A stretch of 64,000 bases of DNA from Candidatus Margulisiibacteriota bacterium (GTDB lineage: Bacteria > Margulisbacteria > WOR-1 > O2-12-FULL-45-9 > XYB2-FULL-48-7). The notes under the pieces were generated by a model, which ran no database searches, had not been told where the DNA came from, and saw only the letters and a list, made by a program, of their open reading frames with translations. The stretch is from the NCBI GenBank assembly GCA_041650855.1, contig JBAZKJ010000002.1:284280-348279 (forward strand), in the 5' to 3' direction. The first letter of the stretch is position 1. Each line of letters begins with the position of its first letter. This document shows, in pieces, positions 35,320 through 53,247 of this stretch. Made by a program: the position numbers and the translations under genes.

Positions 35320-36345
35320 ATGAAGGCGGCATTCTTCGACCTGGAGGGCTGGGAGCTCCCCATCATTAATGACGCCTGCCAAGGGGCAGGGATCGAGATC
35401 GTGAAAGCCGAGAGCGGCCTGCTGACCAAGGGCATGCTGCCGGAGCTCAAGGAGATCGAGCTGATCTCGGTCTCCTTTTCGGCCGTTGATAAAAGTGTGA
35501 TTGATGTCCTCCCCAAACTGAAACTGATCAGCACCCGCACTACCGGTTTTGACCAGATCGACCTTCCCTTGGCAAAGCAGCAGGGGATAGCGGTGATCAA
35601 TGTCCCGAGTTACGGCGAAAATACCGTGGCCGAGTACGCGTTCGCCCTGCTCCTGACCCTCTCGCGCCGGCTCAGCGTCACTTTTATCCGCAGTATGTTC
35701 GGGATCTTTGACCAGAAAGCGGTCAGGGGGAACGATATGCTCGGCAAGACGCTGGGGGTGATCGGTACCGGCCGGATCGGCCAGCGGCTGATCAAGATGG
35801 CGGCGGGCTTTGAGCTGAACATTATCTGCTTCGATCCTTACCCGAACCAGGGGCTGATCGACAAGTTTGCCGTTAAATACGTGCCGCTCGAAGAGCTATT
35901 GAAGAACTCGGACCTGATCAGCATTCACGCCCCTTATACCAAGGAGAACCACCATTTGATCAATGCCGATTCCCTGAAGCTGGTCAAAAAGGGATTACTC
36001 CTGGTCAACACCGCCCGCGGGCCGATCGTTGATACGACCGCGGTCTTGCAGGCGGTCAAGGACGGAGTGCTCGGCGGGGTGGCGCTCGACACCTTCGAAG
36101 GCGAGCAGGTCTGGATCAAGGAAGAGAACATCCTGGCGATGGAAACGGATGCTCTGCCCCCGGCCGAAGCTTTTAAAAAGGCGCTCGAAGGCTTTTTCTT
36201 GCAAAGATTCAAGAATGTGGTCCTAACCCCGCATAATGCGTTCAACAGCCACGAAGCGGTCAGGCGGATCATTGACACTGCTTTAGCGGATATGGCCGCT
36301 TTTGCCGCCAAAGGCGATTGCGACCACCGCCTCGACAAGAAATAA
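35320..36345 (+). CDS. D-isomer-specific 2-hydroxyacid dehydrogenase (D-lactate dehydrogenase-like)
   Basis: GVIGTGRIGQRL NAD-binding motif, catalytic Arg/Glu/His region (…NTARG…, …LDTFEGE…, …TPHNA…). Confidence 0.8.
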   Translation: MKAAFFDLEGWELPIINDACQGAGIEIVKAESGLLTKGMLPELKEIELISVSFSAVDKSVIDVLPKLKLISTRTTGFDQIDLPLAKQQGIAVINVPSYGENTVAEYAFALLLTLSRRLSVTFIRSMFGIFDQKAVRGNDMLGKTLGVIGTGRIGQRLIKMAAGFELNIICFDPYPNQGLIDKFAVKYVPLEELLKNSDLISIHAPYTKENHHLINADSLKLVKKGLLLVNTARGPIVDTTAVLQAVKDGVLGGVALDTFEGEQVWIKEENILAMETDALPPAEAFKKALEGFFLQRFKNVVLTPHNAFNSHEAVRRIIDTALADMAAFAAKGDCDHRLDKK

Positions 36346-36346
36346 A

Positions 36347-37774
36347 ATGGAAGACCATGTCGTCCGCGACCGCCGGCAGCAATTCTGGCTGATCGCGATC
36401 ATCTCCGCGATCTCTTTTTTGATCACCCTTGATTACAATAGCCTCAACATCTCCCTCCCGTCGATCGCCAATTCTTTTGGCGTAAAAGTCGGCGTGGTTT
36501 CTTGGTTGCCGACCCTTTATCTGCTCACGATCACCGGCACGCTGCTCGGGTTTGGCAAGCTTGGCGACATGAAGGGGTACAAGCTGGTCCTCTGTCTCGG
36601 CCTCGGTCTGTTCGCCCTGGGCGGACTGGCGTGCGCTCTGGCCCCGACCTTCCCGGCGCTTTTAGCCGCCCGGGTTTTCCAGTCATTGGGGCAGGCGATG
36701 TACAGTCCGATCTGCATTGCCATGCTGACGACTTTCCTGCCGACCGACATGAAGGGGAAAGCCCTGGGCCTGTACGCGACTTTTCAGGGGCTCGGGTTGG
36801 CTTCCGGTCCGGCACTCGGTGGGTTGATGAACTCGCTCATCAGCTGGCGCGGCGTTTTTCTTTTTACGGCGCCGCTTGCCTTGCTGATCCTGCTGGCCGC
36901 AGTTAAGCTCCTGCCGTCCAAACAACCGCCGGCCAGGGAAACGAGATTTGATCTGTTGGGCGCGATAGTTCTGCTGCTCGGCATGGCGGCGATCTTGTAC
37001 GCGCTTAACCAGGGGATCCGGGTCGGTTGGACCGATCCGTTGATCCTGGCTTGCCTCCTGACGTTCCTGGCGGCGTTCGGCGCCTTTTTCCTTCGGGAAA
37101 AGAGCTGCGCTTACCCGCTGCTCGATCTGAACCTGTTCCGGAACCTCAATTTTACCTTTGCGGTCCTGGCTGCTTTTATCGCCCTGGGGATGCACATCGG
37201 CAACAGCTTTCTCTTTCCTTTCTATCTGCAAATGATGCGGCATCTCTCCGTCGGTGAGATCGGCCTGCTGGCGATGGTCCCTTCGGTTATGATGATGCTG
37301 CTGGCACCGTTCGCCGGCAACCTGTCGGACCGGTACGGCTCAAGGTATATCTGTTTGGCCGGGATGGGTCTGGCGGCTGCGGCTTTTGCGCTTTATTTTT
37401 GCTTGTCGCCCGATTCGAACATTTATTATATTGCCGGGGCGATGTTCCTGCTTGGCAGCGGGATGGGGCTTTTTATCGCCCCGAACAACAAGCTGATCAT
37501 GGCGCAGGCGCCGGCCGACAAGCAGGGGGTCGCTTCCGGCGTTTACAAGATCGCCTTGAACGCCGGTTCCTCGGTCGGGATCGCTTTCTACATGCTGGTC
37601 CTGGCGCAGGTTGTCCTGTTCGATATCGCCAAAATGAACATAATGCTTAACCAGGTCCGCCAGCACACTGATGTCATGATGGCCGGTTTCCGTGGGGCCT
37701 TTCTGTTCGGCCTGTCGCTGGCGTTGCTTGGTATGCTTCTCTGCTACTTGGCGAAAGATAAAACGCCAGCGTGA
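36347..37774 (+). CDS. MFS transporter (DHA2-like, 14 TMS)
   Basis: MFS motifs (GKLGDMKGYK, drug:H+ antiporter-like organisation). ATG at 36347 immediately after the upstream TAA. Confidence 0.8.
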   Translation: MEDHVVRDRRQQFWLIAIISAISFLITLDYNSLNISLPSIANSFGVKVGVVSWLPTLYLLTITGTLLGFGKLGDMKGYKLVLCLGLGLFALGGLACALAPTFPALLAARVFQSLGQAMYSPICIAMLTTFLPTDMKGKALGLYATFQGLGLASGPALGGLMNSLISWRGVFLFTAPLALLILLAAVKLLPSKQPPARETRFDLLGAIVLLLGMAAILYALNQGIRVGWTDPLILACLLTFLAAFGAFFLREKSCAYPLLDLNLFRNLNFTFAVLAAFIALGMHIGNSFLFPFYLQMMRHLSVGEIGLLAMVPSVMMMLLAPFAGNLSDRYGSRYICLAGMGLAAAAFALYFCLSPDSNIYYIAGAMFLLGSGMGLFIAPNNKLIMAQAPADKQGVASGVYKIALNAGSSVGIAFYMLVLAQVVLFDIAKMNIMLNQVRQHTDVMMAGFRGAFLFGLSLALLGMLLCYLAKDKTPA

Positions 37775-39981
37775 TTAAACGATTATTTAAACTATTGGCG
37801 TTGCTGCTGGTCTTGTCCGCTCTTTTATCGGCCGGCGCCTGGTACGGTTTTAATTCTTACCTGCTTCCCCGGGTGATCGTTCCGGCAGTCTTCAAGGAAC
37901 TGTCCAGAACCAACCAAGACCTGCCGATCGAGATCTACATTCGCGGGCTCGACTACCATCCTTTCCGGGGATTCCTCTTCAAAAAGATCGAGCTTTATGT
38001 CGAGCAGCCAAAAGGGAAAGACCTGGTTTTTCAGGCGGCGGAGGTTGATACCGACCTGGACTGGCTGGCGCTGGTCTGGAAAAAGGTGAGGATAACCCGC
38101 TTCAAGGTTAGTGGAGCGACGCTCAATATCAAGCGGGACAAGGCCGGCGCCTGGAATTTTGCTCCGCTCCTCAAGATCGACCGCCAAAGTACGGCGACGC
38201 AGGAGTGGAGCGTAGCGCTGGAGCGGATCGAATTCAACGACGCCGCGGTCAATTACGCCGACCGGGCGAACAAAAAGAATGAGTTAACGCGTTCGTTCCC
38301 GAAAGTCGACCTGGCGATCGGCTGGGAAGGGAAAGGGCAGTTTGCGGTCGACCTCCGGGGAGAAGCGGCCGACCCCCGGCAGGAGTCATTTTCCGCCCGG
38401 TTCAAGGCCGATGCCGCCCGAAAAAGCGTGAGCGGCGAAGCGGCGGTCAAGACCGTCCGCCTCAACGATTACTGGCAATATTATCTGGATGATCTCTGCC
38501 GGCCGTGGCATCTCAAAGCCCAGAGTGTCGCCGCCACCGTTAAATTCTCCGTTGCCAGCCGGGAAGCGACTTACGCCGGACAGATCAACGTCAAACAAGG
38601 AGCATTGCGCAACGGCGAGTACAGCGGTTCCGGCAATCTGACGTTCGGCTACAAAGCGCGGCTGGAAAAAGGGCGGCTGGTCAATAAAGGGACGGTCTTT
38701 AAACTAACGGCAGATAACCTGGCGATCTTTTCCGGCCGCAACAAACTGATCACCAGGGCGCGGCTCAAGACGCTGATCGACGGGGACCGGTTCGCCATCG
38801 AAAGATTCAGCGGCGAATCGTTCAAGGGGAAATTCGACCTGCATAGCGAAATGACCCAGAAGGGGGACGACCTCGAGCAGCTTCGGTTGGAGGGGACGGT
38901 GCAAGACGCCTATGCCGGGATCAAGATGAAGTTCTATCCGAACTGGCAGGCAACGGCCGGCGTGTTGCTGACCGCCGAGTCGTCCCGGGTGCTGGCCAAT
39001 ATCACTTTTACCGACCTGCGGCAGCTCCGGTTCATTGCCGCGGTCACCGGCGAGGTCAGTTTGCCTGATCTTGCCGACCTCATCGATCTGAAGTTTGTGC
39101 TGGTGCTCCCCGGCCTCTCCCAGGAGGTAACGCAGAAAGACCTGAAGGGGAAGGTTGTCCTGGCCGGTTATCTGAAGGGGCGGTATGGTGAAGGGAAAAG
39201 CCTGGATGGCTGGCTGGACGTGGCGTTCCGCAACTTCAGGATCAAGAAAGCGGAAGAACGTTCTTTTATCCTCAACCTCAAAGCTAATAACGGTCGTTTT
39301 CAGGCGGTCATTCCCGTCATGCCGCTTTACCACGGCTATTTTGGCGGCGGCTTTGTCTTTGATCCCGACCGCTGGGGCGTCGAGCTCCATTTTGAGGATC
39401 TCGACCTGGCGGCGCTCGGTTCGACCGACAAACGGTTCCAGGGGATGGCCGGCAAACTAGCGGCCAACGGGGCTTGTCTGGCCCCGTGGAGCGATCTGTC
39501 CTCGATCAAAGGGGGCGGTTATTTTAAGATGACCGACGCTAATCTCCAGCCGGCGCCGATCTTCAAGATCATCGAAGAGGGGATCGCCAGCGTTAACAAG
39601 GGCTTTACCTTGCCGGACTTCAAGAGTATCGAGGGGAATTTTCAGGTCGCGGACGAGAAACTGACGATCGATAACGCTTATGCCAAAGCGTCTAATATGG
39701 ACCTGAAGATCGAAGGCGATTACGCTTTTTCCGGCGAAACGGACTTTACGCTCGGGGTCAAATTCTCGCGCGGCAGCAACTGGAAGCTCGCCCGGCAGGT
39801 CCTTTTTCCGGTGACGATCGGGTTCGACGTACTGGCCAATTCGATCCAGGTCGACATCAAGGGCAAATGGCCCGATCTCCAGCAGAAGACGCTGATCAAG
39901 ACGCTGCAGTGGATGGACGCGCTCTTTGACCCGAACATGAAGTTCGAGCCGGATAAATACACGCTTAAGCAGATCTGGTGA
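37771..39981 (+). CDS. AsmA-family / DUF748-like outer-membrane biogenesis protein
   Basis: N-terminal TM anchor then a long beta-rich periplasmic region typical of the AsmA/TamB-like family. 736 aa. Confidence 0.45.
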   Translation: MIKRLFKLLALLLVLSALLSAGAWYGFNSYLLPRVIVPAVFKELSRTNQDLPIEIYIRGLDYHPFRGFLFKKIELYVEQPKGKDLVFQAAEVDTDLDWLALVWKKVRITRFKVSGATLNIKRDKAGAWNFAPLLKIDRQSTATQEWSVALERIEFNDAAVNYADRANKKNELTRSFPKVDLAIGWEGKGQFAVDLRGEAADPRQESFSARFKADAARKSVSGEAAVKTVRLNDYWQYYLDDLCRPWHLKAQSVAATVKFSVASREATYAGQINVKQGALRNGEYSGSGNLTFGYKARLEKGRLVNKGTVFKLTADNLAIFSGRNKLITRARLKTLIDGDRFAIERFSGESFKGKFDLHSEMTQKGDDLEQLRLEGTVQDAYAGIKMKFYPNWQATAGVLLTAESSRVLANITFTDLRQLRFIAAVTGEVSLPDLADLIDLKFVLVLPGLSQEVTQKDLKGKVVLAGYLKGRYGEGKSLDGWLDVAFRNFRIKKAEERSFILNLKANNGRFQAVIPVMPLYHGYFGGGFVFDPDRWGVELHFEDLDLAALGSTDKRFQGMAGKLAANGACLAPWSDLSSIKGGGYFKMTDANLQPAPIFKIIEEGIASVNKGFTLPDFKSIEGNFQVADEKLTIDNAYAKASNMDLKIEGDYAFSGETDFTLGVKFSRGSNWKLARQVLFPVTIGFDVLANSIQVDIKGKWPDLQQKTLIKTLQWMDALFDPNMKFEPDKYTLKQIW

Positions 39982-40009
39982 TATAATAACCGGCAGACCC
40001 GCAAAAGGA

Positions 40010-41974
40010 GTGACGATCGTGAAGAAAACGACCTGGGCCATTATTCTGCTCCTCTCTCTGGCCGTGACCGCTTTTGCCGCTGAACCGAAAGACGCCTCGG
40101 ACCAGACCAAAGCGCTCAATGCCGCGCTGCGGCAACAACTTCCTTTTAATAATAATGAAGATTTTGCCGATGCCGCGCGTGGTTTGATCACCGCGGAAAC
40201 CGGCCTGATCGTTCGCGACGATCAGGGGAAGGCGGTCTGGGACCTGCAGCAGTATGCTTTCCTGGACGGCGACCCGGCTTGTCCGGACACCGTCAACCCG
40301 AGCCTTTGGCGCCATGCCCGGACCGACTATATTCACGGCCTCTTCAAGGTCACGGATCACGTTTATCAGGTGCGCGGTTACGATCTGTCCTGCATCAGTT
40401 TTATCGAGGGCAAGACCGGTTATATAGTAGTTGACCCGCTAGTCTGCGCCGAAACTGCGAAAGCGGCCCTGGCGCTGGTCCATAAGCACGTCGGCCAGAA
40501 ACCGGTCGTGGCCGTGATCTACACCCACAGCCATGTTGACCACTGGGCCGGCGTCAAGGGGGTCGTGTCCGAAGCGGACGTTAAAGCGGGAAAGGTCAAG
40601 ATCATCGCTTCGCAAGGTTTTCTGGAGGAAGCGGTCAGCGAGAATGTCATGGCCGGGAACGCGATGTCGCGCCGGGCAGCATACATGTACGGCAACTTGA
40701 TCCCGAAAGGGCCCAGGGGGCAGCTGAACGCCGGCCTTGGCCCGACGGTCTCGCAAGGCACGATCACCATCATCGCGCCGACCGACGTCATCAAGAAGAC
40801 CGGGGAGACGCGGACGATCGACGGGGTCAAGATCGTCTTCCAGTATACGCCGAACACGGAAGCGCCGACCGAGATGAACTTCTATTTCCCGCAGTACAAG
40901 GCGCTCTGCATCGCGGAGAACTGCGTCCACACCCTGCATAATCTTTACACGCTGCGCGGCGCCAAGGTGCGCGACGCCAAGTCGTGGGCTTATTTCCTGA
41001 ACGAAGCGATCGACCTGTTCGGCGGCCAGGCCGACGTCATGTTCGCCAGCCACCACTGGCCGAGCTGGGGGAGCGAAAAGATCACCGGCATGCTGGCCAA
41101 ACAGCGCGACGCTTATAAATATATCCACGACCAGACGCTCCGCCTGGCCAATGAAGGATTGAACATGGTCGAGATCGCCGAGCAGATCAAATTGCCGGAG
41201 ACGCTGGCGCAGGCGTGGTATAACCGCGGTTACTACGGGACGGTCAACCACGACAGCAAAGCGGTCTACCAGCGGTACCTCGGCTGGTTCGACGGCAACC
41301 CGGCGACGCTTGACCCGCTGACACCGGTTGCCGCCGGCAAGAAATACGTCGAGTTCATGGGCGGCGCCGAGGCGGTCATCAGTAAGGCGAAAAAGGAGTT
41401 TGTGAAAGGGGAATACCGCTGGGTTGCCCAGGTCCTGAACCACGTGGTCTTTGCCGATCCGGGGAACAAGGCGGCGCGCGAGCTGGAAGCGGACGCGCTG
41501 GAACAGCTCGGCTACCAGGCCGAGTCCGGCGTTTGGCGCAACTTTTATCTGACCGGGGCGCGCGAGCTGCGCGCCGGGATAGTCAGGATCCCGGCCAAGA
41601 CGAATAGCCCCGACGTCATCGGCGCGATGTCGCTCGACATGATCTTTGACTTCATGGCGATCCGCCTGAACGGCCCGCAGGCGAACGGGAAGACGATCAG
41701 GATCAACTGGGTCCTGACCGACACCGGCGAAAAATATCTGCTGACGGTGGCCGATTCGGTCTTAAACTACTTCCCCGGGAAGCAGTCCGCTAAGGCGGAC
41801 GTCACGGTCACGCTCAAACGCTCGACGCTGAACGAAGTGCTGTCGGGGGTGGCGTCGTTCAAGAACAAGATCGTTGCCGGCCAGATCAAGATCAAAGGGA
41901 ACATCTTTAAGCTTATCGAGCTGATGGAGCTGCAGGACAAGTTCGACCCGAACTTTAGGATAGTCGACCGGTAA
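40010..41974 (+). CDS. Alkyl/aryl-sulfatase-like metallo-beta-lactamase-fold hydrolase (SdsA1/BDS1 family)
   Basis: Signal peptide, THSHVDHWAG MBL metal motif, and C-terminal SCP2-like dimerisation region. 654 aa. Confidence 0.7.
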   Translation: MTIVKKTTWAIILLLSLAVTAFAAEPKDASDQTKALNAALRQQLPFNNNEDFADAARGLITAETGLIVRDDQGKAVWDLQQYAFLDGDPACPDTVNPSLWRHARTDYIHGLFKVTDHVYQVRGYDLSCISFIEGKTGYIVVDPLVCAETAKAALALVHKHVGQKPVVAVIYTHSHVDHWAGVKGVVSEADVKAGKVKIIASQGFLEEAVSENVMAGNAMSRRAAYMYGNLIPKGPRGQLNAGLGPTVSQGTITIIAPTDVIKKTGETRTIDGVKIVFQYTPNTEAPTEMNFYFPQYKALCIAENCVHTLHNLYTLRGAKVRDAKSWAYFLNEAIDLFGGQADVMFASHHWPSWGSEKITGMLAKQRDAYKYIHDQTLRLANEGLNMVEIAEQIKLPETLAQAWYNRGYYGTVNHDSKAVYQRYLGWFDGNPATLDPLTPVAAGKKYVEFMGGAEAVISKAKKEFVKGEYRWVAQVLNHVVFADPGNKAARELEADALEQLGYQAESGVWRNFYLTGARELRAGIVRIPAKTNSPDVIGAMSLDMIFDFMAIRLNGPQANGKTIRINWVLTDTGEKYLLTVADSVLNYFPGKQSAKADVTVTLKRSTLNEVLSGVASFKNKIVAGQIKIKGNIFKLIELMELQDKFDPNFRIVDR

Positions 41975-44901
41975 TGGCGAGATATTTCTGGACGGCGCTG
42001 TTCTTGCTCTGTTGCCTGGCGCCGCTCCAGGCCGCGACTTACGAAAGCCAGGCGCTGCTCAACGGGACCAACCTGGCGGATTTCATCGGCGACCATCTCG
42101 GTTTTCTCTACGATAGCCACGGTTGTTTGCATTTTACCCCTTCCGATATCTACCTTTTGGTCAGAACGGTCCCCAAAGGGGCGAAGCTGACGATCAAAAG
42201 TTACAATCAGAGAACGCTGCCGGACGGCTACGCGGCGGCGCCGGTCTTCAGAAAACTGGTCACGACCCGGGGCGACGTCAATAAATATGCCGATATGTTC
42301 AAGAAAGGGAACGCCCGGCTGGTCGTTTATCCCGGGCTCGGCCAACTATTTGTCCTGGTCGGCGACCAGCCGCTGGTCAAGATGAAGACGTCGCCCGGTC
42401 CAGCCCAAGACTACCGGCTGGTTTTCTCTGCCGACCCGGACGGGCGGATCGGTTGGGATAGCTCGCTTTCCACGCCGACCGACCCCGGCGACTATAAGAT
42501 CCTCGGGACGACCGCTCATTACCTCAGTAACGCTTATCGCGATATCACGATCGTGCCGTTCGGCGGCTGGCTGGTCAAGCAGAAAGGGAACTGGGTTTTC
42601 CAGAACGACGACCGCAAGTGGTACCAGGCGCCCGGTTTCATTGCTAACGATCTGAACCAGCCGTATGGCCAGCAGACGGAGAACTATCTCGATATTAATC
42701 TGGATAAACAGGGGAAGATAACCGGCGCCCGCTGGGCGGGGAACGATTTCGGCAAGTACGCGCTCCTCTGGACGGTGGACGGCCGGAACCGCTATCCGGA
42801 GCTGGGTTACTGCGAAGGGCAGCTCCTTTATGAACAATCGGTCTTGATCAAGGACCTCGCCCAGCTTTTAACCGTGCCGGGCCCCGATTCGTTGGAGGCG
42901 TGCATTGCCGGGAATGAGAACTTCAAGCTCTACCGCGCCGTTCATGATTTTCTGGTATCCAGCGGCGAGGTCGCGGCGGCGAGCCTTGATCCGGTTTCCT
43001 GCAGTTATGTGAAGCTCTTTAATGGTTTTCCCTTGAACGCGGCCGATAAAGTGAATATCGACGACCGGGTGGAAAAAGCGTTCCGTGATCAACGGGCGGG
43101 GAAATATCCGCTGCTGCCCGATCAAAAGCAGCGCCAGCTCGGCTTGTATAACTTTGTCCGCGATTACGATAATGTTTTTGACAAGAACGCCGGCTGGTAC
43201 GTCATGGTCCGCGACCACTGGGACGTCTTGAGCGATTTACGGGCCAAGCTGCGCCGCGATTATAACGCCTTTGGCCTGTACTCTCCGGATAACCGGGTCA
43301 TCGCCTTGGAGCGGTTCTTGAACGACCGGCTGGAGTTCCGCCAGGTCGTTATCCCCAAGCGGGGCAAGCCGCGGTTGACCTTTGCCGATTTTGCCAGCAC
43401 GGCGGAAGAACAGTCGATCTTCAACGCCCGGGAGAAAGAGGCGCTCCGCGGCCTGATCCGCGCCGCCGCCTCGGGGGAAACGGCGGTGCCGGAGATCTCT
43501 TCAGTTCAGGCGCTCAACGACTACAACTTCGGCGTCCTGCTTAACGCGATGCTGGGCAACTTATATAAAAGCCACGGCTGCATGCACGTCTCGCCGCTTA
43601 ACGTTTATATATTGAACAAAGTCCTGCCGGTCGGCGCCCGGATCACGATCAAGCCGTACGCGGAGAAAGCGCCGGCCGGGTACGATAAGCTCCCGTTCCT
43701 AGCGGAGATGGTGAACTTCAACGACGATCTTACCGGCCTGGCGGCGCAGTTAGCCGATCCGGGCTCCGTCAGGGCGATAGTCTATCCGGGATCCAACTTA
43801 TGGATAATTTCTTTAAAAGATAAACCTTTTGCCCGGATGATGATCGAAGCCGGTTTCCAGCAGAAGGTCAATATCATGCAGGGGCGGGACAAGAACGGTT
43901 ATCCGCTGTTCGCCAAGGACATCGCTTACCCGACGCCCCCCGGCAGTTATTCCGTCTTGCGGAAGGTCGATAATTACGTTTCCAACCTTTATTACGACAC
44001 GACCGTCGTGCCGCAGGGGGCGCAGCTGAAGAAGACCGGCGGCAACTGGTCGTACCGGAAAACGGACGGCAGCTGGGGAAACGTGCCGGACGCGATCAAC
44101 GACGACTTGAACGGGTCGCGCCGGGAACGGACCTACGAATATTACGACCTGGGACGGGACGACAACGACAAGCTGGTCCGCGCGAAGTGGGGGAGCAACA
44201 CTTTCGGCCGCTTCCCGATCCTGCTGACCAAAGACGGCCGGACGCCGGCTCCCGAGCTGGTCCACACGACCGGCGACCTGATGATGGAACAGCGGCGGCT
44301 GGTCGGCGACCTGATCAGGGTGATGGCCTCGACTTTTGAGAGCTTTAACGCCGCGACCGCGGCCAGCCGGAACTTCGATCTCTACACGATCTGCTACCAG
44401 TTCACGCAGGACCCGCAGCGCGCCGACCTGCTTGAGCCGATCGAAAGCGGCAGCTACAAAGCTTATCTGGACCTGCCGCTCAATGCCGACGAGCAAGCGG
44501 CGCTGCCGCCCGATGTCATTGCCTGTTTTAAGCTATACAAGGGGAAAGAACCCCTGACCCAGGCGGAAGCGGACCTGCTCGTCAGGGAAGGATTGGCCCG
44601 CTGGCAGGGGGGAACTTTGAAGGTCGATGACGCCAAGGCCTACGGGGTCCTGTACGACCTCTATCAATACGTCGTTTCGATCAGGAAGAATGCCAATATA
44701 TACTCGACCCTGCAGGACAACTGGAACGCGCTGGCCGATATCCGCCAGGCGATGCTCCGGGACCTGGGCCGGCTCCGGATCAAGGACCCGGCCGTTTTTG
44801 CCGAACTGATGCGGGAGCTGATCACCGAACGGGCGCAAATGGAGCGGTTGACCCAAAAGGACGCATACCGGATACTCGACGAACAACTCGAAGACAATTG
44901 A
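41974..44901 (+). CDS. Large secreted protein with tandem L,D-transpeptidase-like modules (paralog 2)
   Basis: Signal peptide; both modules retain SHGC (YDSHGCLHFTP and YKSHGCMHVSP). Same internal-duplication architecture as 21873-24617. Confidence 0.6.
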   Translation: MARYFWTALFLLCCLAPLQAATYESQALLNGTNLADFIGDHLGFLYDSHGCLHFTPSDIYLLVRTVPKGAKLTIKSYNQRTLPDGYAAAPVFRKLVTTRGDVNKYADMFKKGNARLVVYPGLGQLFVLVGDQPLVKMKTSPGPAQDYRLVFSADPDGRIGWDSSLSTPTDPGDYKILGTTAHYLSNAYRDITIVPFGGWLVKQKGNWVFQNDDRKWYQAPGFIANDLNQPYGQQTENYLDINLDKQGKITGARWAGNDFGKYALLWTVDGRNRYPELGYCEGQLLYEQSVLIKDLAQLLTVPGPDSLEACIAGNENFKLYRAVHDFLVSSGEVAAASLDPVSCSYVKLFNGFPLNAADKVNIDDRVEKAFRDQRAGKYPLLPDQKQRQLGLYNFVRDYDNVFDKNAGWYVMVRDHWDVLSDLRAKLRRDYNAFGLYSPDNRVIALERFLNDRLEFRQVVIPKRGKPRLTFADFASTAEEQSIFNAREKEALRGLIRAAASGETAVPEISSVQALNDYNFGVLLNAMLGNLYKSHGCMHVSPLNVYILNKVLPVGARITIKPYAEKAPAGYDKLPFLAEMVNFNDDLTGLAAQLADPGSVRAIVYPGSNLWIISLKDKPFARMMIEAGFQQKVNIMQGRDKNGYPLFAKDIAYPTPPGSYSVLRKVDNYVSNLYYDTTVVPQGAQLKKTGGNWSYRKTDGSWGNVPDAINDDLNGSRRERTYEYYDLGRDDNDKLVRAKWGSNTFGRFPILLTKDGRTPAPELVHTTGDLMMEQRRLVGDLIRVMASTFESFNAATAASRNFDLYTICYQFTQDPQRADLLEPIESGSYKAYLDLPLNADEQAALPPDVIACFKLYKGKEPLTQAEADLLVREGLARWQGGTLKVDDAKAYGVLYDLYQYVVSIRKNANIYSTLQDNWNALADIRQAMLRDLGRLRIKDPAVFAELMRELITERAQMERLTQKDAYRILDEQLEDN

Positions 44902-44909
44902 GGCGTTAA

Positions 44910-46136
44910 ATGCTCATTAAGTTGGCGTGGCGTAATATTTTCCGCAATTTCCGCCGGACTTTCTTTACCTTTATTGCTATTGCGATCGGCCTGGGACTGA
45001 TGCTGCTGGCCGACTCGATGCTCTCCGGGATCGATGCCCAATCTTTCGCCAAGATCATTGATTATGAGACCGGCCACGTTAAGATCTTCCAGCGCGGTTA
45101 CCAGCAAGATAAAGATAATCTGCCGCTTGATAAATTGATCACCGCGCCGGCCGGGGTGATCGATACTGTCCGCCGCGACCCCGCAGTTGCCGGCGTCACT
45201 TCCCGGGTCAACTTCCGGATCATGCTTTCCGACCGGATCGACCAGATCCCGGCGATCGGCATTGCCGTTAACCCGGCCGATGACGAGTCGGTCTTTCTGT
45301 TGAAGCAGGGGTTAACGCAAGGCGAGTTCCTGGTCAGCTCCGAAGAGGCGATGCTGGTCGGCAAGAAGCTGGCCGATGATTTTGGGGTCGGGGTCGGCGA
45401 CTACCTGACCGTTCTGGCCAGGACCAAATACGATACTTACCAGGCGCTCGACCTCCGGATCAAGGGGGTCCTGCAGACCGAGGATCCCCAGATCGACTGG
45501 TATTCGATCGTCATCCCGCTCGACGTCGGCCAGAGCTCGCTCGACCTGAGCCGGGGTGTCACAGAGATCGACATCAAGTTGAAGGATATCAACGCAGTCG
45601 ACCAGTTCAAGAATAAATTGGCCAAAGAACTTCCCGGCTTAGAGATCGCCACCTGGAAAGAGATGGCCGAAGATGTCCTGGCCATCTCCAAGGCAAAATA
45701 TTCCGGCACCTTCACGATCTTCGGCTGCATTGTTTTGATCGCCCTGATCGGCATCACCAACACGATCCTGATGGCCGCCTTTGAGCGGGTCAAGGAGATC
45801 GGGATGATGGGGGCGATGGGGATGAAACGCGGCCAGATCGTCCGGCTCTTTGTCCTGGAAGGGACAATGATCGGCCTGCTCGGCAGCATCACCGGTTGCA
45901 TCCTTGGCGCTCTGCTGATCGGTTTCTGGATGGTCCCGTACGGGATCGATTTTTCCGCCTTTATGCGGGAGATGGGGCCGATCGGCTACCGGACCACCGG
46001 CAAGTTCACCGGCCAGTGGCATCTGATCATGTTTCCGGTCGCTTTTATCTTTGGTCTGGTCGTGTCAGCCTTGACCAGTATTTATCCGGCCAGAGTGGCT
46101 TCACGAATGGAGCCGAGCGAGGCGTTGAGGAAATAA
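44910..46136 (+). CDS. ABC transporter permease, FtsX/MacB/LolE-like (type A)
   Basis: 4 TM helices, large periplasmic loop, FtsX C-terminal domain. 408 aa. Confidence 0.75.
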   Translation: MLIKLAWRNIFRNFRRTFFTFIAIAIGLGLMLLADSMLSGIDAQSFAKIIDYETGHVKIFQRGYQQDKDNLPLDKLITAPAGVIDTVRRDPAVAGVTSRVNFRIMLSDRIDQIPAIGIAVNPADDESVFLLKQGLTQGEFLVSSEEAMLVGKKLADDFGVGVGDYLTVLARTKYDTYQALDLRIKGVLQTEDPQIDWYSIVIPLDVGQSSLDLSRGVTEIDIKLKDINAVDQFKNKLAKELPGLEIATWKEMAEDVLAISKAKYSGTFTIFGCIVLIALIGITNTILMAAFERVKEIGMMGAMGMKRGQIVRLFVLEGTMIGLLGSITGCILGALLIGFWMVPYGIDFSAFMREMGPIGYRTTGKFTGQWHLIMFPVAFIFGLVVSALTSIYPARVASRMEPSEALRK

Positions 46137-46137
46137 G

Positions 46138-47361
46138 ATGTTCAGATTAGCTTTAAGGAATGTTTTGCGCAATAAAAGGCGGTCGTTCCTGACCGGGCTC
46201 TCGATCGCCTTCGCGGTGATGGTCGTCATCTTTCTCTGGACGTTCGTTTCCGGGATCATCAGCGGGATGTTCCAGAATTACGTGACCAATTCGGTCGGCC
46301 ATATCCGGATCATGAACGCCGATTATCGGAAAAGGGAGACGATGCTGCCGCTTAGCGCCACGGTTTATAATTACCAGAATGTCATCAATCAGATCGAACG
46401 GGACCCGAACGTGAAGCTGGCGACCGGCCGGATCAAGTTCGGCGTCCTGATGGATATCAAGGGGAGGAACAAGCCGGTCCTCGGCGTCGGCCTTGATCCG
46501 GTCAAGGAAGAGTCGGTCATCGGTCTGTCAGGCAAAATGGTGTCCGGTAGGATGTTCGCCGGCGGGACCAGCGAAACGGTCGTCGGCCTCGGCCTGGCCA
46601 AAGAGTTGGGCCTGAAAGCGGGCGACACGCTCACGGTCATCACCCAGACGGCGCACGGCTCGCTCTCCGGCTTGAACCTGAAAGTCGCCGGCATCTTTAG
46701 CCTCGGTGTCCCTTCGATCGATAACCGGACCTTCTATTTGCCGCTTAATCAAGCGCAGCAGCTCCTTGACCTCGATGGCCGGGTGACCGAGATCTTTTTG
46801 CTGATCAGGGATCATGATCGGGCGGTCGAAGTGGCAAAAAAGCTGGACAAGACCTTGCCGTCCGGACTAATTGCCGTGCCGTGGCAGGCGAACGGCTTTT
46901 TGTTCTACATGATGGTGCTGATCAAGTACATGTACGCCGGGATCTACGCCTTCATCCTTCTCCTGGCCAGCTTCACCATTCTCAACACGATGTTCATGGC
47001 GGTCATGGAGCGGACGCGCGAGATCGGGATGATGAAAGCGCTTGGGATGAAAGAAGGGGAGATCGGCCGGCTGATCACTTTGGAAGCGTTGATTCTCGGT
47101 GTAATGGCTAGTCTGGCCGGCGCCGCCGGTGGAACACTGCTCGCTTATTACGTCAGCACTGCCGGGATCGATTATACGGCGGCTTTTAAGAGCATCAGGG
47201 ATATCGAGATCCCGCTCTCTTATGTTTACAAAGGAGAATTCAGCTGGCTGACGATCGGGACCGGTTTTCTGATGGGAGTGTTTTTTTCCGTTCTGGCCTC
47301 GATCTTGCCCGCCCGGCGGGCAGCCAAACTGGAGCCAACCGAAGCGATGAAAGCGGGTTGA
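46138..47361 (+). CDS. ABC transporter permease, FtsX/MacB/LolE-like (type B)
   Basis: 407 aa FtsX-fold permease. Confidence 0.75.
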   Translation: MFRLALRNVLRNKRRSFLTGLSIAFAVMVVIFLWTFVSGIISGMFQNYVTNSVGHIRIMNADYRKRETMLPLSATVYNYQNVINQIERDPNVKLATGRIKFGVLMDIKGRNKPVLGVGLDPVKEESVIGLSGKMVSGRMFAGGTSETVVGLGLAKELGLKAGDTLTVITQTAHGSLSGLNLKVAGIFSLGVPSIDNRTFYLPLNQAQQLLDLDGRVTEIFLLIRDHDRAVEVAKKLDKTLPSGLIAVPWQANGFLFYMMVLIKYMYAGIYAFILLLASFTILNTMFMAVMERTREIGMMKALGMKEGEIGRLITLEALILGVMASLAGAAGGTLLAYYVSTAGIDYTAAFKSIRDIEIPLSYVYKGEFSWLTIGTGFLMGVFFSVLASILPARRAAKLEPTEAMKAG

Positions 47362-47408
47362 CGAGTTTCCGTTCCGGCCTATAATTGTCGGTAACAGGGG
47401 GAGATAAC

Positions 47409-48104
47409 ATGGCAGTCGTTAAAATGGAAAATGCGGTCAAGAACTATAAGGTAGGGAAGCTGGAGGTGCCGGCTTTAAGGGGGATCAACTTGGCGATCGA
47501 AAAGGGGGACTTTGCCGCCATTGCCGGCCCGTCCGGTTCCGGCAAGACGACAATGCTCAACCTGTTCGGCTGTCTCGACAAGCCGACTGGGGGGAAAGTC
47601 TTTATCGAGGAGCACGATATCATCACCCTGAAACCCGACCAGCTGGCCGACGTCCGGAACGAACATATCGGTTTCATCTTCCAGAGCTTTAACCTGATCC
47701 CGGTCCTGACCGCGTTTGAGAACGTCGAATTCCCTTTAATTCTCTTAAAAAAGGACGGGCCGGGCATCCGCAAGAAGAAAGTGATGGAGATGCTGGCTTC
47801 GGTCGGCATCGCCGATCTGGCCAACCGACTGCCCAGCGAAATGAGCGGCGGACAGCAGCAGCGGGTGGCGATCGCCCGGGCGCTGGTCAAGAATCCCGAT
47901 TACGTCCTGGCCGACGAGCCGACGGCGAACATCGATACCAAGACCGGCCACGAGATCCTTGATCTGATGCAGGCGATGAACAAGAACCTCGGCACGACGT
48001 TCATCTTTTCCACCCACGATCCCAAAGTGATGGAGCATGCCCGGCGGCTGATCCGCGTCCGCGACGGACAAATAGAATCGGATGTTGCTCAAGCTGGCGT
48101 ATAG
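47409..48104 (+). CDS. ABC transporter ATP-binding protein (LolD/MacB-NBD-like)
   Basis: Walker A GPSGSGKTT, signature LSGGQQQRVAIARAL, Walker B VLADEPT. GGGGGAG RBS. Start at MAVVKMEN. Confidence 0.88.
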   Translation: MAVVKMENAVKNYKVGKLEVPALRGINLAIEKGDFAAIAGPSGSGKTTMLNLFGCLDKPTGGKVFIEEHDIITLKPDQLADVRNEHIGFIFQSFNLIPVLTAFENVEFPLILLKKDGPGIRKKKVMEMLASVGIADLANRLPSEMSGGQQQRVAIARALVKNPDYVLADEPTANIDTKTGHEILDLMQAMNKNLGTTFIFSTHDPKVMEHARRLIRVRDGQIESDVAQAGV

Positions 48105-49305
48105 AAATATCTTCCGTAATTTCCGGCGGACGCTGTTGACCCTGTCGGCGCTGGCCTTTGCCATTTTAATGTTGATCATCTTCGATTCTTACTTTAAAGG
48201 CCTCGATCTTAAAACCTATGAGAAAATAATCAATTACGAAAACGCCCACCTCAAGTATTTTCCGCAAGGTTACAAGGAAGATATCGATAATTTGCCCATC
48301 GAGAAAGCTTTTGACCCGGCGCCGGTGCTGGCGGTCTTGCGGGCCGACCCGCTGGTCCAGGCGGCGGCGCCCCGGCTCAGCTTTCGTTCGACGTTGTCAA
48401 ACGGCGTCGACCAGTTGCCGGCCGTCGGGTTGGCGGTCGATCCGGCCCAGGATCAGACCGTTTTTACGATGAAGCAAGCGGTTAATCAGGGAGAGTATCT
48501 GGCTGGGGCCGAAGAAGCAATGGTCGTTGGCGCTGACTTGGCGAAGGATTTCAATGTTAGTCCGGGTGATATGCTGACCGTTCTCTGCCGGACCAAGTAT
48601 TCGACTTTCCAGGCGCTCGATCTGCCAATTAAGGGGGTTATCAAGAGCGATGACTATGCCATTGATACGAACTCGATCATTGTCCCCCTGGGGTTGGCCC
48701 AACAAGCGCTGGATCTGGGGCAGGGTGTGACCGAAGTTAATATTTTACTGAAAGATGTCAAACAGATCGACGCTTTTAAGAAGCAATACGCTGGCCGCTT
48801 CCCCGGCTTGGAACTCTGGACCTGGAAAGAAGTGGCGGAAGATGTTGTCGCCCATTCCGAATCTCATGCCATGAGCAAGAACATCATTTTCGCCTGCATA
48901 ATCATTATTGCGCTGGTCGGGATCAGCAATACTATCCTGATCGCGGCGTTCGAGCGGACGCGGGAGATCGGCATGCTTGGCGCCATGGGGATGAAGCGCC
49001 GGCAGATCGTTGGGCTTTTTGTCCTGGAAGGGACGATGATCGGGGTGGTGGGGAGCGCGCTCGGTTGTCTGGCCGGATTATTGCTGGTGGTATTCTGGAC
49101 CACCCGGTTCGGTTTTGACCTTTCTTTCGCGATGAGGGACTGGGGCAATATTGGTTTTCGGACCGGAGTGTTTTTAGGCGCCTGGAATCTTGACCTGATC
49201 CCGCAGGTCTTTGGTTTCGGAGTAGTGGTCGCCTTGCTGTCCAGCATCTATCCGGCGCTGGTCGCTTCGCGCCTGGAGCCGACCGAGGCCTTGAGAAAAT
49301 ATTAG
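48082..49305 (+). CDS. ABC transporter permease, FtsX-like (type A')
   Basis: 407 aa. N-terminus MLLKLAYRNIFRNFRRT is near-identical in pattern to 44910. Confidence 0.75.
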   Translation: MLLKLAYRNIFRNFRRTLLTLSALAFAILMLIIFDSYFKGLDLKTYEKIINYENAHLKYFPQGYKEDIDNLPIEKAFDPAPVLAVLRADPLVQAAAPRLSFRSTLSNGVDQLPAVGLAVDPAQDQTVFTMKQAVNQGEYLAGAEEAMVVGADLAKDFNVSPGDMLTVLCRTKYSTFQALDLPIKGVIKSDDYAIDTNSIIVPLGLAQQALDLGQGVTEVNILLKDVKQIDAFKKQYAGRFPGLELWTWKEVAEDVVAHSESHAMSKNIIFACIIIIALVGISNTILIAAFERTREIGMLGAMGMKRRQIVGLFVLEGTMIGVVGSALGCLAGLLLVVFWTTRFGFDLSFAMRDWGNIGFRTGVFLGAWNLDLIPQVFGFGVVVALLSSIYPALVASRLEPTEALRKY

Positions 49306-49306
49306 G

Positions 49307-50530
49307 ATGAATTTTATCTTAAAGCTGGCGATCAGGAATGTTTTCCGCAATACCCGGCGGTCGATACTGACCGGCGCTTCGATCATGTTTTCGGTGGCGA
49401 TCTTGATCTTTGCCTGGTCGTTTATCGAAGGAACGGTCAAGGACATGTCCGACGCTTATATCCGGTTCCAGAGCGGGCATGTCCGGGTCTTGACCAAAGA
49501 GTTCGCCAGGCGTGAAAAGATGTTCCCGCTCCAGTATTCGATCGCCGATTATCGCGCGGTGCAGCGGCAGATCGCGGCCACTCCCGGGATCAAGACCGTT
49601 ACCGGCCGGCTCAAGTTCGGCGTCCTCTTGGATTACGCGGGGAATACCAAGCAGACGTTGGGCATGGGGATCGAACCGGCGGCGGAGGAGTCGATCCTTG
49701 AGCTTAATAAGAATATTGTGCAGGGACGGGTGATCCGCGCCGGCACAGACGAAGTCAATATCGGAGTGAACATGGCCAAGGACCTTAAACTTAAGCTGGG
49801 GGACATCTTAACGGTTGTGACCCAGACCGCCTACGGTTCCTTGAGCGCCAAGAACTTTACCGTGGTCGGGATCTTTAATTTTTCTTCGCCAACCATTGAT
49901 CGGAAGGTCTTTTTGATCCCGATCGAGAGCGCGCAGTATTTGCTCGAACTCCCGGGCAGCGCCAGCGAGATTTTCATTATCACCGAAAAAGCCGATGCCG
50001 CCCGCCGGGTGGCGTCAATGATCGCCGCCACGCTCGGACCGGGTTATAAAGTAACCGCCTGGCAGGACCAGAGCTCAATTTATATGTTTCTGGTCCTGAT
50101 CAAGTATCTGTACCTTATTATCTTGATCCTGATCGTTTTACTGTCCGCTTTTACCATTCTGAATACTATGTTCATGACGGTGCTGGAGCGGACGCGGGAG
50201 ATCGGGATGATGAAGGCGCTGGGGATGACCAACCGTCAGTTGATAATTATGGTGCTGCTGGAAGCGCTGGTGCTGGGCGCCTTGGCGAGTGTAATTGGGA
50301 TGTTTTTGGGTGCCGCTTTGAGCTACTATATGAGCATTTACGGCCTGGACGTGACTGCTTCCGTCGAGAAAATGGATTTTCCGACCTTTACTGTTTATTA
50401 CTGCGATTTCAGCTGGACCTATGTTTTCAGCGGTTTTGTGGTCGGCATGGCTTGTGCCGTATTGGCGGCGGTCTTTCCCGCTTTGCGGGCGGCAAAATTA
50501 GAACCAACGGAGGCGTTACATGAAATATAA
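49307..50530 (+). CDS. ABC transporter permease, FtsX-like (type B')
   Basis: 407 aa; paralog of 46138. Confidence 0.75.
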   Translation: MNFILKLAIRNVFRNTRRSILTGASIMFSVAILIFAWSFIEGTVKDMSDAYIRFQSGHVRVLTKEFARREKMFPLQYSIADYRAVQRQIAATPGIKTVTGRLKFGVLLDYAGNTKQTLGMGIEPAAEESILELNKNIVQGRVIRAGTDEVNIGVNMAKDLKLKLGDILTVVTQTAYGSLSAKNFTVVGIFNFSSPTIDRKVFLIPIESAQYLLELPGSASEIFIITEKADAARRVASMIAATLGPGYKVTAWQDQSSIYMFLVLIKYLYLIILILIVLLSAFTILNTMFMTVLERTREIGMMKALGMTNRQLIIMVLLEALVLGALASVIGMFLGAALSYYMSIYGLDVTASVEKMDFPTFTVYYCDFSWTYVFSGFVVGMACAVLAAVFPALRAAKLEPTEALHEI

Positions 50531-51290
50531 ACTCGCGATCCTGATGATCTGGGTGCTGGGGACCGGGTGCTGGGGGATCACGGGGGAGGAAATAATCAAT
50601 AAGGTCGACGCTAATATGACGTTCAAGACCGCCCGGTCGGAATCGAAGATGGTCATCCATGTTGATCAGGAAGTCAGGGAGAAGACGATGATCGGCTATG
50701 ATAAGGGGACCGATACGGGCTATGCTGAATTTCTCTCTCCGGCCAGGGACAAAGGGGTCAAGTACCTCAAGATCAAGGATAATATGTGGATGTACCTGCC
50801 GTCGGTCGATAAGATCATCAAGATCTCCGGGGCGATGCTCCGCCAGTCGATGATGGGCTCTGATTTTAGCTACGAGGATGCATTGGAGAGCAGCAAGCTG
50901 CTGGAAAAATACACCGCCACACTGATCTCCGAAGAGGTTGTCCCGCTTACTTTTCGCGAAGGGGAGAAGCTGGTCCGCCGCCAGCGGCGTTGCTATGTGG
51001 TTGACCTGACCGCCAAGGTCAAGGATGTCACTTATTTCCGCCGGGTCGTTTATGTCGATAAAGAACTGTTCGTCCCGGCCCGGGAAGACCTGTTCGCCCT
51101 CTCCGGAAAAAAATTAAAAGAAATGACCATGGGGGATGTGCGGCGCTATGGGGTGCGTTATTATCCGACCTACATGACGATGAGCAACCTGCTGCGGGCG
51201 AATTCCCAGACCGAACTGTTCACCACCAAGATCGAGTTCGACCTGCCTGTCGATGCCAAGGTCTTTACCCAGGGCAATTTGACAAAGTGA
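50520..51290 (+). CDS. LolA-like outer-membrane lipoprotein-sorting-family protein
   Basis: Signal/lipobox (…LGTGC), 256 aa; resembles LolA-like proteins that co-occur with FtsX/ABC modules. Confidence 0.5.
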   Translation: MKYKLAILMIWVLGTGCWGITGEEIINKVDANMTFKTARSESKMVIHVDQEVREKTMIGYDKGTDTGYAEFLSPARDKGVKYLKIKDNMWMYLPSVDKIIKISGAMLRQSMMGSDFSYEDALESSKLLEKYTATLISEEVVPLTFREGEKLVRRQRRCYVVDLTAKVKDVTYFRRVVYVDKELFVPAREDLFALSGKKLKEMTMGDVRRYGVRYYPTYMTMSNLLRANSQTELFTTKIEFDLPVDAKVFTQGNLTK

Positions 51291-52369
51291 GAAGACTGCT
51301 GGTGATAGGGGTCGGGTGGTGGATACTGGGGAGCGTGGCGTTCGGGCTGCAGCTTGCCGGTTCCTACGAGAACGACCTGCTGACCCTGCTCAAGAAGAAC
51401 GGCAGCGCCGGGCTTGGCGACCTGAACAAACTCCGGCTGAAGCTCGACCAGCAAGCCGGGGATAATTTGGCCATCCACCTTGAGCCCCGCTATTATTTCC
51501 TCGCCAAATCGCAAGCGATCTTGGTCACCGGCGCGACCGACCTGGACCAACTGGTCTTTGACCGGGCTTATGCCAAATACCGGACCGATCTTTGGTCGTT
51601 GACCGCCGGCAAACAGCGGATCGCCTGGGGGACCGGCTATATCTGGAACCCGGTCGACATTTTTAACCCGATGGTCCTCTCCTTCGCCGTCCGCGATGAA
51701 GATAAGACCAATGTCGAAGCGGTCCGCCTGGAAGTGCCGGTCGGTGAAGCGGGCGGGGTCGATGCGTTCGTAGTCGCGGGAAAACCCTGGGAGCAAACGG
51801 GGAGAGGGTTGCGGGTAAAGGGGAACACCGGATCGTTCGATCTGGCACTCAGCTACGTCGACCAGGGGACGCTCGGGCATCAGGTCGGTTTAGAAACAGC
51901 CGGCGATATCATTAAAGATGTCGGGGTAAGGGGAGAGATCGCGGTCAAGACCGTTCCGGGCCTGAACGGGTATGTCGCTCAAGCGGTCGCTGGCGGCGAT
52001 TACACGCTCGATAACGGGATCGGCCTCAACTGCGAGTATTATTACAACGGCCTTGGTAGCCGGAACAGCGGCAATTATAACTGGGGAACGGCGGAATCGG
52101 TCGGCATGGATTATCTCTATCTTAGCGGCAATAAGATCATCGATGAGATCACGACCGTTACTGTTTCCTTGTTGACCAACCTTGATGACCAGAGCTACAT
52201 GGTCTACCCGCAATACGCCCGCAATATCGGCCAGAACCTCGACTTATACCTGGAGGGGATGTGGCTGGGCGGTCCGGACGGGTCGGAATTCGTGCCGCCT
52301 TCTTCGGCTGATCCGCTCGGTTTCGGCGGGAGCAAGATGGGGCTTGTCCGGCTCGTTTACTCATTTTGA
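51287..52369 (+). CDS. Putative outer-membrane beta-barrel protein
   Basis: Signal peptide, beta-strand-rich sequence, C-terminal aromatic (…LVRLVYSF). 360 aa. Confidence 0.4.
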   Translation: MRRLLVIGVGWWILGSVAFGLQLAGSYENDLLTLLKKNGSAGLGDLNKLRLKLDQQAGDNLAIHLEPRYYFLAKSQAILVTGATDLDQLVFDRAYAKYRTDLWSLTAGKQRIAWGTGYIWNPVDIFNPMVLSFAVRDEDKTNVEAVRLEVPVGEAGGVDAFVVAGKPWEQTGRGLRVKGNTGSFDLALSYVDQGTLGHQVGLETAGDIIKDVGVRGEIAVKTVPGLNGYVAQAVAGGDYTLDNGIGLNCEYYYNGLGSRNSGNYNWGTAESVGMDYLYLSGNKIIDEITTVTVSLLTNLDDQSYMVYPQYARNIGQNLDLYLEGMWLGGPDGSEFVPPSSADPLGFGGSKMGLVRLVYSF

Positions 52370-53185: not shown

Positions 53186-53186
53186 G

Positions 53187-53215
53187 GGAACCTTTGCGTG
53201 ACTTGGCTTGTCTAA
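53187..53215 (+). promoter_or_regulatory. ECF (sigma-E-type) promoter GGAACC-N17-GTCTAA upstream of the spy-like / tolC / macAB genes
   Basis: -35 GGAACC at 53187-53192 and -10 GTCTAA at 53210-53215. Confidence 0.55.
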
Positions 53216-53247
53216 TCTGGCAGGATGGGTTTAAAGGAGGAAATAAT

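Follow-up and report, generated by a model that had tools for sequence, protein, structure and literature searches.

Positions 36347 to 52369 of the 64,000-nt stretch analyzed here (the window; 431-kb contig JBAZKJ010000002.1 of a Candidatus Margulisiibacteriota assembly, GCA_041650855.1) hold a 16-kb run of same-strand genes, referred to below as the array. These encode a major facilitator superfamily (MFS) permease, an AsmA-family protein, an alkyl sulfatase, a secreted "giant" protein with two SHGC-containing repeats, four FtsX permeases around a single ABC ATPase, a LolA-like carrier, and an outer-membrane protein (OMP). An earlier note on this DNA, made from the sequence alone, interpreted them as a single trans-envelope system. 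After comparison with related loci, the run is probably made up of at least four units that are conserved separately and lie side by side in this lineage specifically, with only the seven-gene module from FtsX1 to the OMP being a physical trans-envelope system. The features discussed are collected in Table 1.

Table 1. Genes of the co-directional run, with a related stand-alone gene upstream. Positions are those of the window; scores are from Pfam.
Feature	Position	Strand	Matches and remarks
Second giant-family paralogue, stand-alone, 932 aa, clade B	21819..24617	+	YkuD-end match as in the array copy
Opine-dehydrogenase-like and D-2-hydroxyacid dehydrogenase genes	34130..36345	+	Octopine_DH 118 bits; 2-Hacid_dh_C 161 bits
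DHA2-family MFS efflux permease (EmrB-like)	36347..37774	+	MFS_1 234 bits
AsmA-family protein	37771..39981	+	AsmA (PF05170) 43.9 bits, cutoff 29.8
Alkyl sulfatase	40010..41974	+	Alkyl_sulf_dimr 219 bits; Alkyl_sulf_C 141 bits; Lactamase_B 56 bits
Giant protein, secreted, 975 aa	41974..44901	+	
Permease pair 1, FtsX1	44910..46136	+	FtsX, MacB_PCD
Permease pair 1, FtsX2	46138..47361	+	FtsX, MacB_PCD
ABC ATPase	47409..48104	+	ABC_tran 113 bits
Permease pair 2, FtsX3	48082..49305	+	FtsX, MacB_PCD
Permease pair 2, FtsX4	49307..50530	+	FtsX, MacB_PCD
LolA-like carrier	50520..51290	+	LolA_like (PF17131) 176 bits
OMP, 360 aa	51287..52369	+	
ECF (extracytoplasmic function) sigma factor, 93-aa putative anti-sigma, LTXXQ/Spy-like protein, TolC-like outer-membrane efflux protein (OEP), membrane-fusion protein (MFP), MacB	52414..57837	+	Pfam assignments

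The open reading frame (ORF) listing, Pfam, and NCBIfam agree with the earlier note on the order of the array genes and on their shared orientation. The junctions are tight as described, with a measured range of -23 to +47 nt rather than 0-30 nt. The reported absence of internal terminators also holds, since a terminator scan found no plus-strand site in any short intergenic gap; shuffled controls fold just as well as the largest gaps, and an Rfam scan of the region returned no RNA element. The limits given, 36347 and 52369, are correct for the genes but are not natural boundaries, because the tight run continues on both sides and comprises 19 genes (34130-57837). At its 5' end are two dehydrogenase genes, separated by 2 and 1 nt from the genes that follow them; it is with these, which have no role in the envelope, that the co-directional run actually begins. 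The nearest upstream gene on the opposite strand ends at 34055. On the other side, the ECF sigma/envelope-stress unit that had been placed immediately downstream does begin there, 44 nt after the OMP gene. Close packing is general in the window: the median gap between same-strand genes is 1 nt, 35 of 40 such gaps are 50 nt or less, and about 97% of the sequence is covered by ORFs (by a crude greedy ORF call, with overlaps counted twice). The spacing within the array therefore tells little about functional coupling, and with two cytoplasmic dehydrogenases packed as tightly as the envelope genes, packing also says little about shared function.

All four permeases match the Pfam families FtsX (66-78 bits) and MacB_PCD (52-54 bits), and their best matches in the PDB are LolF (E 1e-28) and LolE. 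Against the lolCE equivalog model (TIGR02212), FtsX1 to FtsX4 score 128, 159, 128, and 158 bits, below its cutoff of 362.45. FtsX1 and FtsX3 are 55% identical and FtsX2 and FtsX4 46.5%, against 27-32% for the other pairings, which points to an old duplication of a heterodimer pair. The ATPase likewise falls below the cutoff of the LolD model (TIGR02211; 221.9 bits, cutoff 307.75), and although LolD is the nearest family, scores like those for LolD are also obtained for DarD, the MacB nucleotide-binding domain (NBD), DevA, and FtsE. Its motifs are intact (Walker A GPSGSGKT, signature MSGGQ, Walker B YVLADEP, H-loop STHD). The set has the makeup of a type VII ABC system, with four-transmembrane (TM) FtsX permeases, a MacB_PCD domain between TM1 and TM2, and an intact NBD.

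The carrier has no Pfam match at E <= 0.01 other than PF17131 (LolA_like/TP_0789-like), and LolA proper (PF03548) is not among its matches. Its PDB matches (9tp6, 3bk5, 3buu, 4z48) are uncharacterized LolA-superfamily proteins, and a literature search found no functional study of the PF17131 family. In most homologs an AxA signal peptidase I site directly precedes a conserved (I/L)TGEEII, which marks it as a soluble periplasmic protein. The window copy has an LGTGC sequence, and a lipoprotein was considered on this account; it was rejected because the cysteine is not conserved and most homologs have AxA instead. The OMP has a signal peptide, a C-terminal aromatic residue, and a closed 18-strand barrel fold, as in the OprD/AlgE/Wzi class, and is a predicted 18-stranded outer-membrane beta-barrel of a family not in Pfam.

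Conservation of these genes was examined in 80 metagenome loci, found with a profile of 33 LolA-like homologs and compared by tblastn with the full set of 19 window proteins. Of these loci, nearly all that reach past the LolA-like gene have FtsX, ABC, and OMP genes adjacent, so the FtsX-ABC-LolA-like-OMP neighborhood, which the earlier note had described as conserved, was recovered. Three gene orders were found: FtsX-FtsX-ABC-(FtsX-FtsX)-LolA-OMP, ABC-FtsX-FtsX-LolA-OMP, and OMP-ABC-FtsX-FtsX-LolA, the last with LolA-like identities of 39-47%. In loci of the Margulisbacteria type, identities are 70-91% for the ATPase and 55-83% for the LolA-like protein; the best 120 LolA-like homologs listed are 53-89% identical. 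Orthologs of FtsX1 and FtsX2 occur in nearly all related loci. The layout with four permeases and one ATPase, in which two paralogous LolC/E-like pairs flank a single NBD gene, is also found in at least nine others (L049, L052, L054, L055, L059, L061, L064, L068, and L077), with other relatives having one pair only. One locus, L060, has a deviating order (FtsX4-LolA-FtsX1-FtsX2). Only the last seven genes of the array (44910-52369) form a conserved, uncharacterized inner-to-outer-membrane transport module.

The upstream genes do not share this conservation. Counts were made on 35 LolA-anchored loci whose extra flank is 6 kb or longer and on 36 giant-anchored loci with flanks of 8 kb or longer; the giant-side loci came from GTDB genomes (37) and, for the rest, from exact-protein look-ups. 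None of the 35 LolA-anchored loci has a homolog of the giant, AsmA-like, sulfatase, or MFS gene. Among the 36 giant-anchored loci, two have module genes, eight have genes of the ECF/LTXXQ/OEP/HlyD/MacB unit, one has the sulfatase, and none has the AsmA-like or MFS gene. No AsmA-like homolog was found in any other locus fetched on either anchor, and the only MFS homolog beside a module or giant gene elsewhere is a 32% match in L023.

Individual loci illustrate the same point. In L129 and L130, whose giant proteins are the closest (83% identical), the order is P-type ATPase, sulfatase, giant, ECF sigma, anti-sigma, LTXXQ, OEP, MFP, and MacB. Relative to L129, which has no FtsX module, the window has the seven-gene module inserted between the giant and ECF sigma genes. 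The ECF-MacB unit also follows the giant gene in L131 (giant 79% identical). L132, a 527-kb Margulisbacteria contig, keeps the outer flanks of the window (dCache sensor and DUF6790 genes upstream, ECF to MacB downstream) and has the module, with none of the six upstream genes. Between FtsX1 and FtsX2 it carries an insertion of three small genes, one of them DUF559-like (L132 6443-8076), and between the OMP and ECF sigma genes a trehalose synthesis set (GT20, TPP, DUF5752, TreT; L132 11955-16043). The region behaves like a conserved backbone with a hotspot for insertions. All six genes of the ECF-MacB unit are present in L129, L131, and L132 and most of them in L070, and the distance between module and unit is at most about 5 kb in L070 and L132; the genes from ECF sigma to MacB are a separately conserved envelope-stress and efflux unit. 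In clade A, the branch of its family that includes the array copy (see below), the giant protein is a frequent regional neighbor of the module and of the ECF-MacB unit and an obligate part of neither.

Several possible promoters lie inside the run. The best sigma-70-like match in a 20-kb scan is in the gap between FtsX2 and the ABC gene (47358..47385, plus strand), with TTGACG and TATAAT separated by 16 nt, 11 of 12 positions matching the consensus, and 24 nt remaining to the ABC start. At the same junction in relatives, L068 has TTGACA-17-TATAAT and L049, L052, and L059 have TATAAT; others have no gap there. An extended -10-like sequence, TGATATAAT (39979..39987, plus strand), ends 23 nt before the GTG of the sulfatase gene at 40010, or 32 nt before 40019, where the deposited gene call has its start. 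A TATAAT (52406-52411) is also found just upstream of the ECF sigma gene. Of 43 TATAAT sequences in the window, 17 fall in the 4.2% that is intergenic (examples are at 6268, 24952(-), 30537(-), 34079(-), 39982, 47380, and 61289), roughly a 15-fold enrichment, and several of these are 24-28 nt upstream of start codons. This enrichment and spacing imply sigma-70-type promoters with very short 5' untranslated regions in this Margulisbacterium. Judged by sequence, the boxes that precede the sulfatase gene, the ABC gene, and the ECF sigma gene are likely candidates for internal promoters. Their positions match the unit boundaries inferred from synteny, except that FtsX1 and FtsX2 would be transcribed with the sulfatase and giant genes.

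Upstream of the module, the MFS protein scores 216 bits against TIGR00711 (efflux_EmrB; cutoff 230). In the AsmA-like protein, which has a hydrophobic N-terminus serving as a membrane anchor, the Pfam match is confined to residues 33-169 (about 140 N-terminal residues); there are also weak matches to YhdP, DUF748, and GspN, the first two below their cutoffs. The alkyl sulfatase has full-length matches in the PDB to 4nur (E 8e-235) and 2cfu (SdsA1, E 6e-200), a THSHVDH sequence at residues 173-178, and a signal peptide. By these sequence features it is a secreted type III (metallo-beta-lactamase fold) member of the SdsA1/PSdsA family, with all three domains of SdsA1-type sulfatases (metallo-beta-lactamase with HxHxDH, dimerization, and SCP2-like C-terminal) and nothing notably different from them. 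Its gene overlaps that of the giant protein by 1 nt, and the two are also paired in L129 and L130. Among the loci compared, this pairing of an otherwise ordinary SdsA1-type enzyme with a giant protein is restricted to this sub-lineage.

The giant protein, deposited as a hypothetical protein, consists of a signal peptide and two repeats of about 480 aa that are 31% identical over 425 residues, each opening with SHGC(L/M)H(F/V). In an alignment of 46 family members, SHGC, with its cysteine, is invariant in repeat 2 and present in at least 90% of sequences in repeat 1. The earlier note had labeled the protein L,D-transpeptidase (LDT)-like. It does have the (S/T)HGC motif that carries the catalytic cysteine of L,D-transpeptidases; its similarity to them in fold is only weak. 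Against YkuD (PF03734), the whole protein scores 23.9 bits (cutoff 23.4) with no individually significant stretch, and the alignment covers 29 residues at the C-terminal end of the model (positions 118-146 of 146) rather than the full catalytic domain. By sequence, the PDB contains no LDT or other relevant match (best, SgraIR, E 0.8). The label is thus sound as a resemblance but not as family membership.

Compared with known LDTs (LdtMt2, YkuD, Csd6, Pgp2), the motif is only about 30 residues past the signal peptide, leaving no room for the N-terminal strands; the usual upstream catalytic histidine is not evident, and there is a conserved histidine at Cys +2; and the domain occurs twice, joined to large beta and helical regions without known relatives. 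Segments resembling the usual N-terminal YkuD strands come after the SHGC motif. Together with the position of the motif near the signal peptide, this suggests that the protein carries a rearranged, possibly circularly permuted YkuD-like catalytic unit. It is most likely a periplasmic, cysteine-dependent, divergent YkuD-type enzyme acting on the cell wall or envelope.

A word-index search gave 51 homologs of the giant protein, and all of the named ones are from Margulisbacteria, Saganbacteria, or WOR-1. An exhaustive HMMER scan of 1.84 billion representatives found 64 family members, a count that includes half-length, single-repeat forms of about 450-536 aa. The family is tiny and was seen only in metagenome-assembled genomes (MAGs) of the Margulisbacteria group. 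In L012 (9799-14327), a 58% identical piece directly precedes a 67% identical full copy, and L043 and L044, which are on one contig, represent two copies on a single scaffold. A neighbor-joining tree separates clade A (the array copy and P0002-P0012) from clade B (all others, including a second copy in the window), the latter consisting of stand-alone copies present in most Margulisbacteria. The second window copy is 38% identical to that in the array; its repeat-1 motif is degenerate (SKGD, with the cysteine lost) and that of repeat 2 is intact (SHGCIHV). Duplication, fusion, and splitting seem to have shaped the family. The possibility that the giant protein is an obligate subunit of the module was also considered, and rejected given the linkage at just two of 36 loci and the stand-alone paralogue in the same window.

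The proposed units are therefore the MFS and AsmA-like genes, the sulfatase and giant genes, the seven-gene module, and the genes for ECF sigma, Spy-like protein, and TolC-MFP-MacB. For the module, a transport direction, permease pairing, hand-over steps, and cargo can be suggested by analogy with LolCDE/LolDF-LolA and with the predicted Borrelia BBJ23-29 cluster. FtsX1-FtsX2 and FtsX3-FtsX4 would form heterodimers sharing one ATPase, and these complexes would act as type VII mechanotransmission extractors, pulling a cargo that is acylated or otherwise hydrophobic out of the inner membrane, from its outer leaflet. The cargo would then be handed to the soluble LolA-like carrier and ferried across the periplasm to the 18-stranded barrel, which may stand in for LolB as an acceptor, an insertase, or an exit channel.

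The module shares with LolCDE of E. coli and LolDF of Acinetobacter (PMC13575116) the type VII architecture, with four-TM FtsX permeases, a MacB-type periplasmic domain, and a separate ATPase, and a soluble periplasmic LolA-superfamily carrier encoded alongside. It differs in that the carrier belongs to PF17131 rather than the LolA family, a barrel replaces the LolB lipoprotein, there are two permease pairs for one ATPase, and the host phylum is reported to be without Lol. In a survey of this system, Lol was found to be practically absent from Terrabacteria, including Cyanobacteria and sister clades (10.1101/2021.05.31.446380). The Borrelia BBJ23-BBJ29 cluster (PMC13078400) is similar to the module and likewise known from prediction only, but has an Omp85/BamA-like barrel, a homodimeric permease, and extra chaperone-like genes, compared with an OprD/AlgE/Wzi-class barrel and four permeases here. 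MacAB-TolC shares the FtsX and MacB_PCD fold and the mechanotransmission logic. Unlike it, the module has no membrane-fusion protein or TolC, its permeases and ATPase are separate genes, and a soluble carrier takes the place of a continuous duct. A bona fide MacB-MFP-OEP set is found just downstream of the module (53709-57837).

That all of the genes from MFS to OMP form one trans-envelope machine, modifying or exporting a lipid or lipoprotein cargo as the earlier note proposed, now appears very improbable. The uninterrupted same-strand packing without terminators and the membrane or periplasmic location of all the products are as such a machine would require, but equally tight packing extends to the dehydrogenase genes at the 5' end and is genome-wide. 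The note had named gene-order conservation in relatives and internal promoters or terminators as the points that would decide the matter. On the former, there is no conserved linkage of the MFS, AsmA-like, or sulfatase genes to the module: no other module locus has it, and among giant loci a single lineage does, and the closest relative, L129, has nothing of the module between giant and ECF sigma. On the latter, no terminators were found; three TATAAT boxes are suitably placed for promoters, and one of them has a -35 element and is kept in relatives. The absence of conserved linkage (zero of 35 and two of 36 loci) largely refutes the idea. Some observations nevertheless weigh against treating the units as wholly separate. 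In L010, where the giant protein is 56% identical, the order is FtsX-FtsX-giant-ABC-LolA-OMP, with the giant gene inside the module, as one machine would also predict; in L033 it is 7 kb upstream of the module, with opposite-strand genes between. The L010 arrangement, and the abutment of the giant gene on FtsX1 here, hint at a real functional tie in clade A. Read-through of the whole array may also occur, as no terminators lie inside it, and its contents share a coherent theme (efflux, lipid transfer, hydrolysis of detergents, the cell wall, and a stress sigma factor). The comparative loci, moreover, are from MAGs or metagenome contigs, many of them short. This coherence could also be explained by a lineage-specific envelope-defense supra-operon, in which separate units are co-expressed against surfactants or envelope damage, possibly under the downstream ECF sigma factor: MFS and MacAB-TolC efflux, an SDS-type sulfatase, an AsmA lipid bridge, a cell-wall enzyme, the Lol-like module, and a Spy-like chaperone. 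The lack of terminators across 23.7 kb, the adjacency of sulfatase, giant, and ECF-MacB genes kept in L129/L130, the ECF/MacB genes at eight of 36 giant loci, and the module's proximity to that unit in L070 and L132 are all in keeping with this. It is still unlikely, if less so than a single machine, as no ECF-type promoter was identified, the candidate internal promoters are sigma-70-like, the run starts with two metabolic dehydrogenases, and the genes could be adjacent through inheritance of regional synteny and not through selection for co-regulation.

Within the juxtaposed-units interpretation, the cargo of the module is a further question. Since the scores are below the cutoffs of all Lol equivalog models, lipoprotein transport is an analogy and not an established membership. 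The module might instead handle a small hydrophobic molecule, glycolipid, or polymer, with the barrel as a true surface channel, similar to cassettes in which a LolA-fold DUF1329 protein and a DUF1302 barrel accompany RND (resistance-nodulation-division) pumps, or to DevBCA-type glycolipid export. The best structural matches of the barrel are substrate channels and polymer exporters (ChiP, Occ/OprD, AlgE, Wzi), one member of its family has a weak DUF1302 match, and the ATPase reaches 202 bits against the DevA family; the reported near-absence of Lol from Terrabacteria, this group included (10.1101/2021.05.31.446380), fits as well. On the other hand, the permeases are closer to LolF and LolE than to MacB or DevC, the carrier resembles lipoprotein carriers in both name and fold, and the organism evidently makes lipoproteins, as the MacA-like MFP (54938-55879, plus strand) has a lipobox (LMLTSC) at its HlyD N-terminus, although canonical Lol is reported absent from its clade. 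On balance a cargo of this kind is somewhat doubtful, but the class of the barrel keeps it a serious alternative. A more specific proposal, with a lower probability, is that the module is the Margulisbacterial equivalent of Lol, taking lipoproteins or lipids to the outer membrane with a PF17131 carrier, a barrel for LolB, and two specialized permease pairs for two cargo classes, and that the clade-A giant protein is an accessory enzyme, covalently processing or tethering the cargo or the wall beneath.

Other parts of the window contain further gene groups. Adjacent LarC-like (Ni_insertion, 414 bits) and LarB-like (AIRC) genes (2319-4051, minus strand), a pair that is syntenic in L010, suggest nickel-pincer cofactor biosynthesis. 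From 6324 to 14925 (plus strand) are genes for two Mrp/Nuo-type antiporter-like subunits, one of 1010 aa and apparently fused or duplicated, for NuoJ-like and NuoH-like subunits, and for a Complex1_49kDa/NiFe-hydrogenase large-subunit-like protein; the cluster resembles that of a membrane-bound hydrogenase of group 4 or of an Mbx-like complex. Genes for three beta-propeller proteins follow one another at 16102-20061 (plus strand; Kelch repeats, Rax2/CHB_HEX_C, and NHL repeats), and three tandem tRNA genes are found at the window end (63404-63669, plus strand).

In compact genomes such as this one, tight same-strand packing alone should not be taken to indicate a single system. The trafficking of outer-membrane lipoproteins and lipids is well understood in Proteobacteria only, and the seven-gene module is a concrete candidate for how Margulisbacteria-type diderms move hydrophobic cargo to the outer membrane; its four permeases to one ATPase are an unusual stoichiometry that needs explanation. 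The giant SHGC-repeat family, rare and confidently modeled, is a candidate for an uncharacterized periplasmic enzyme.

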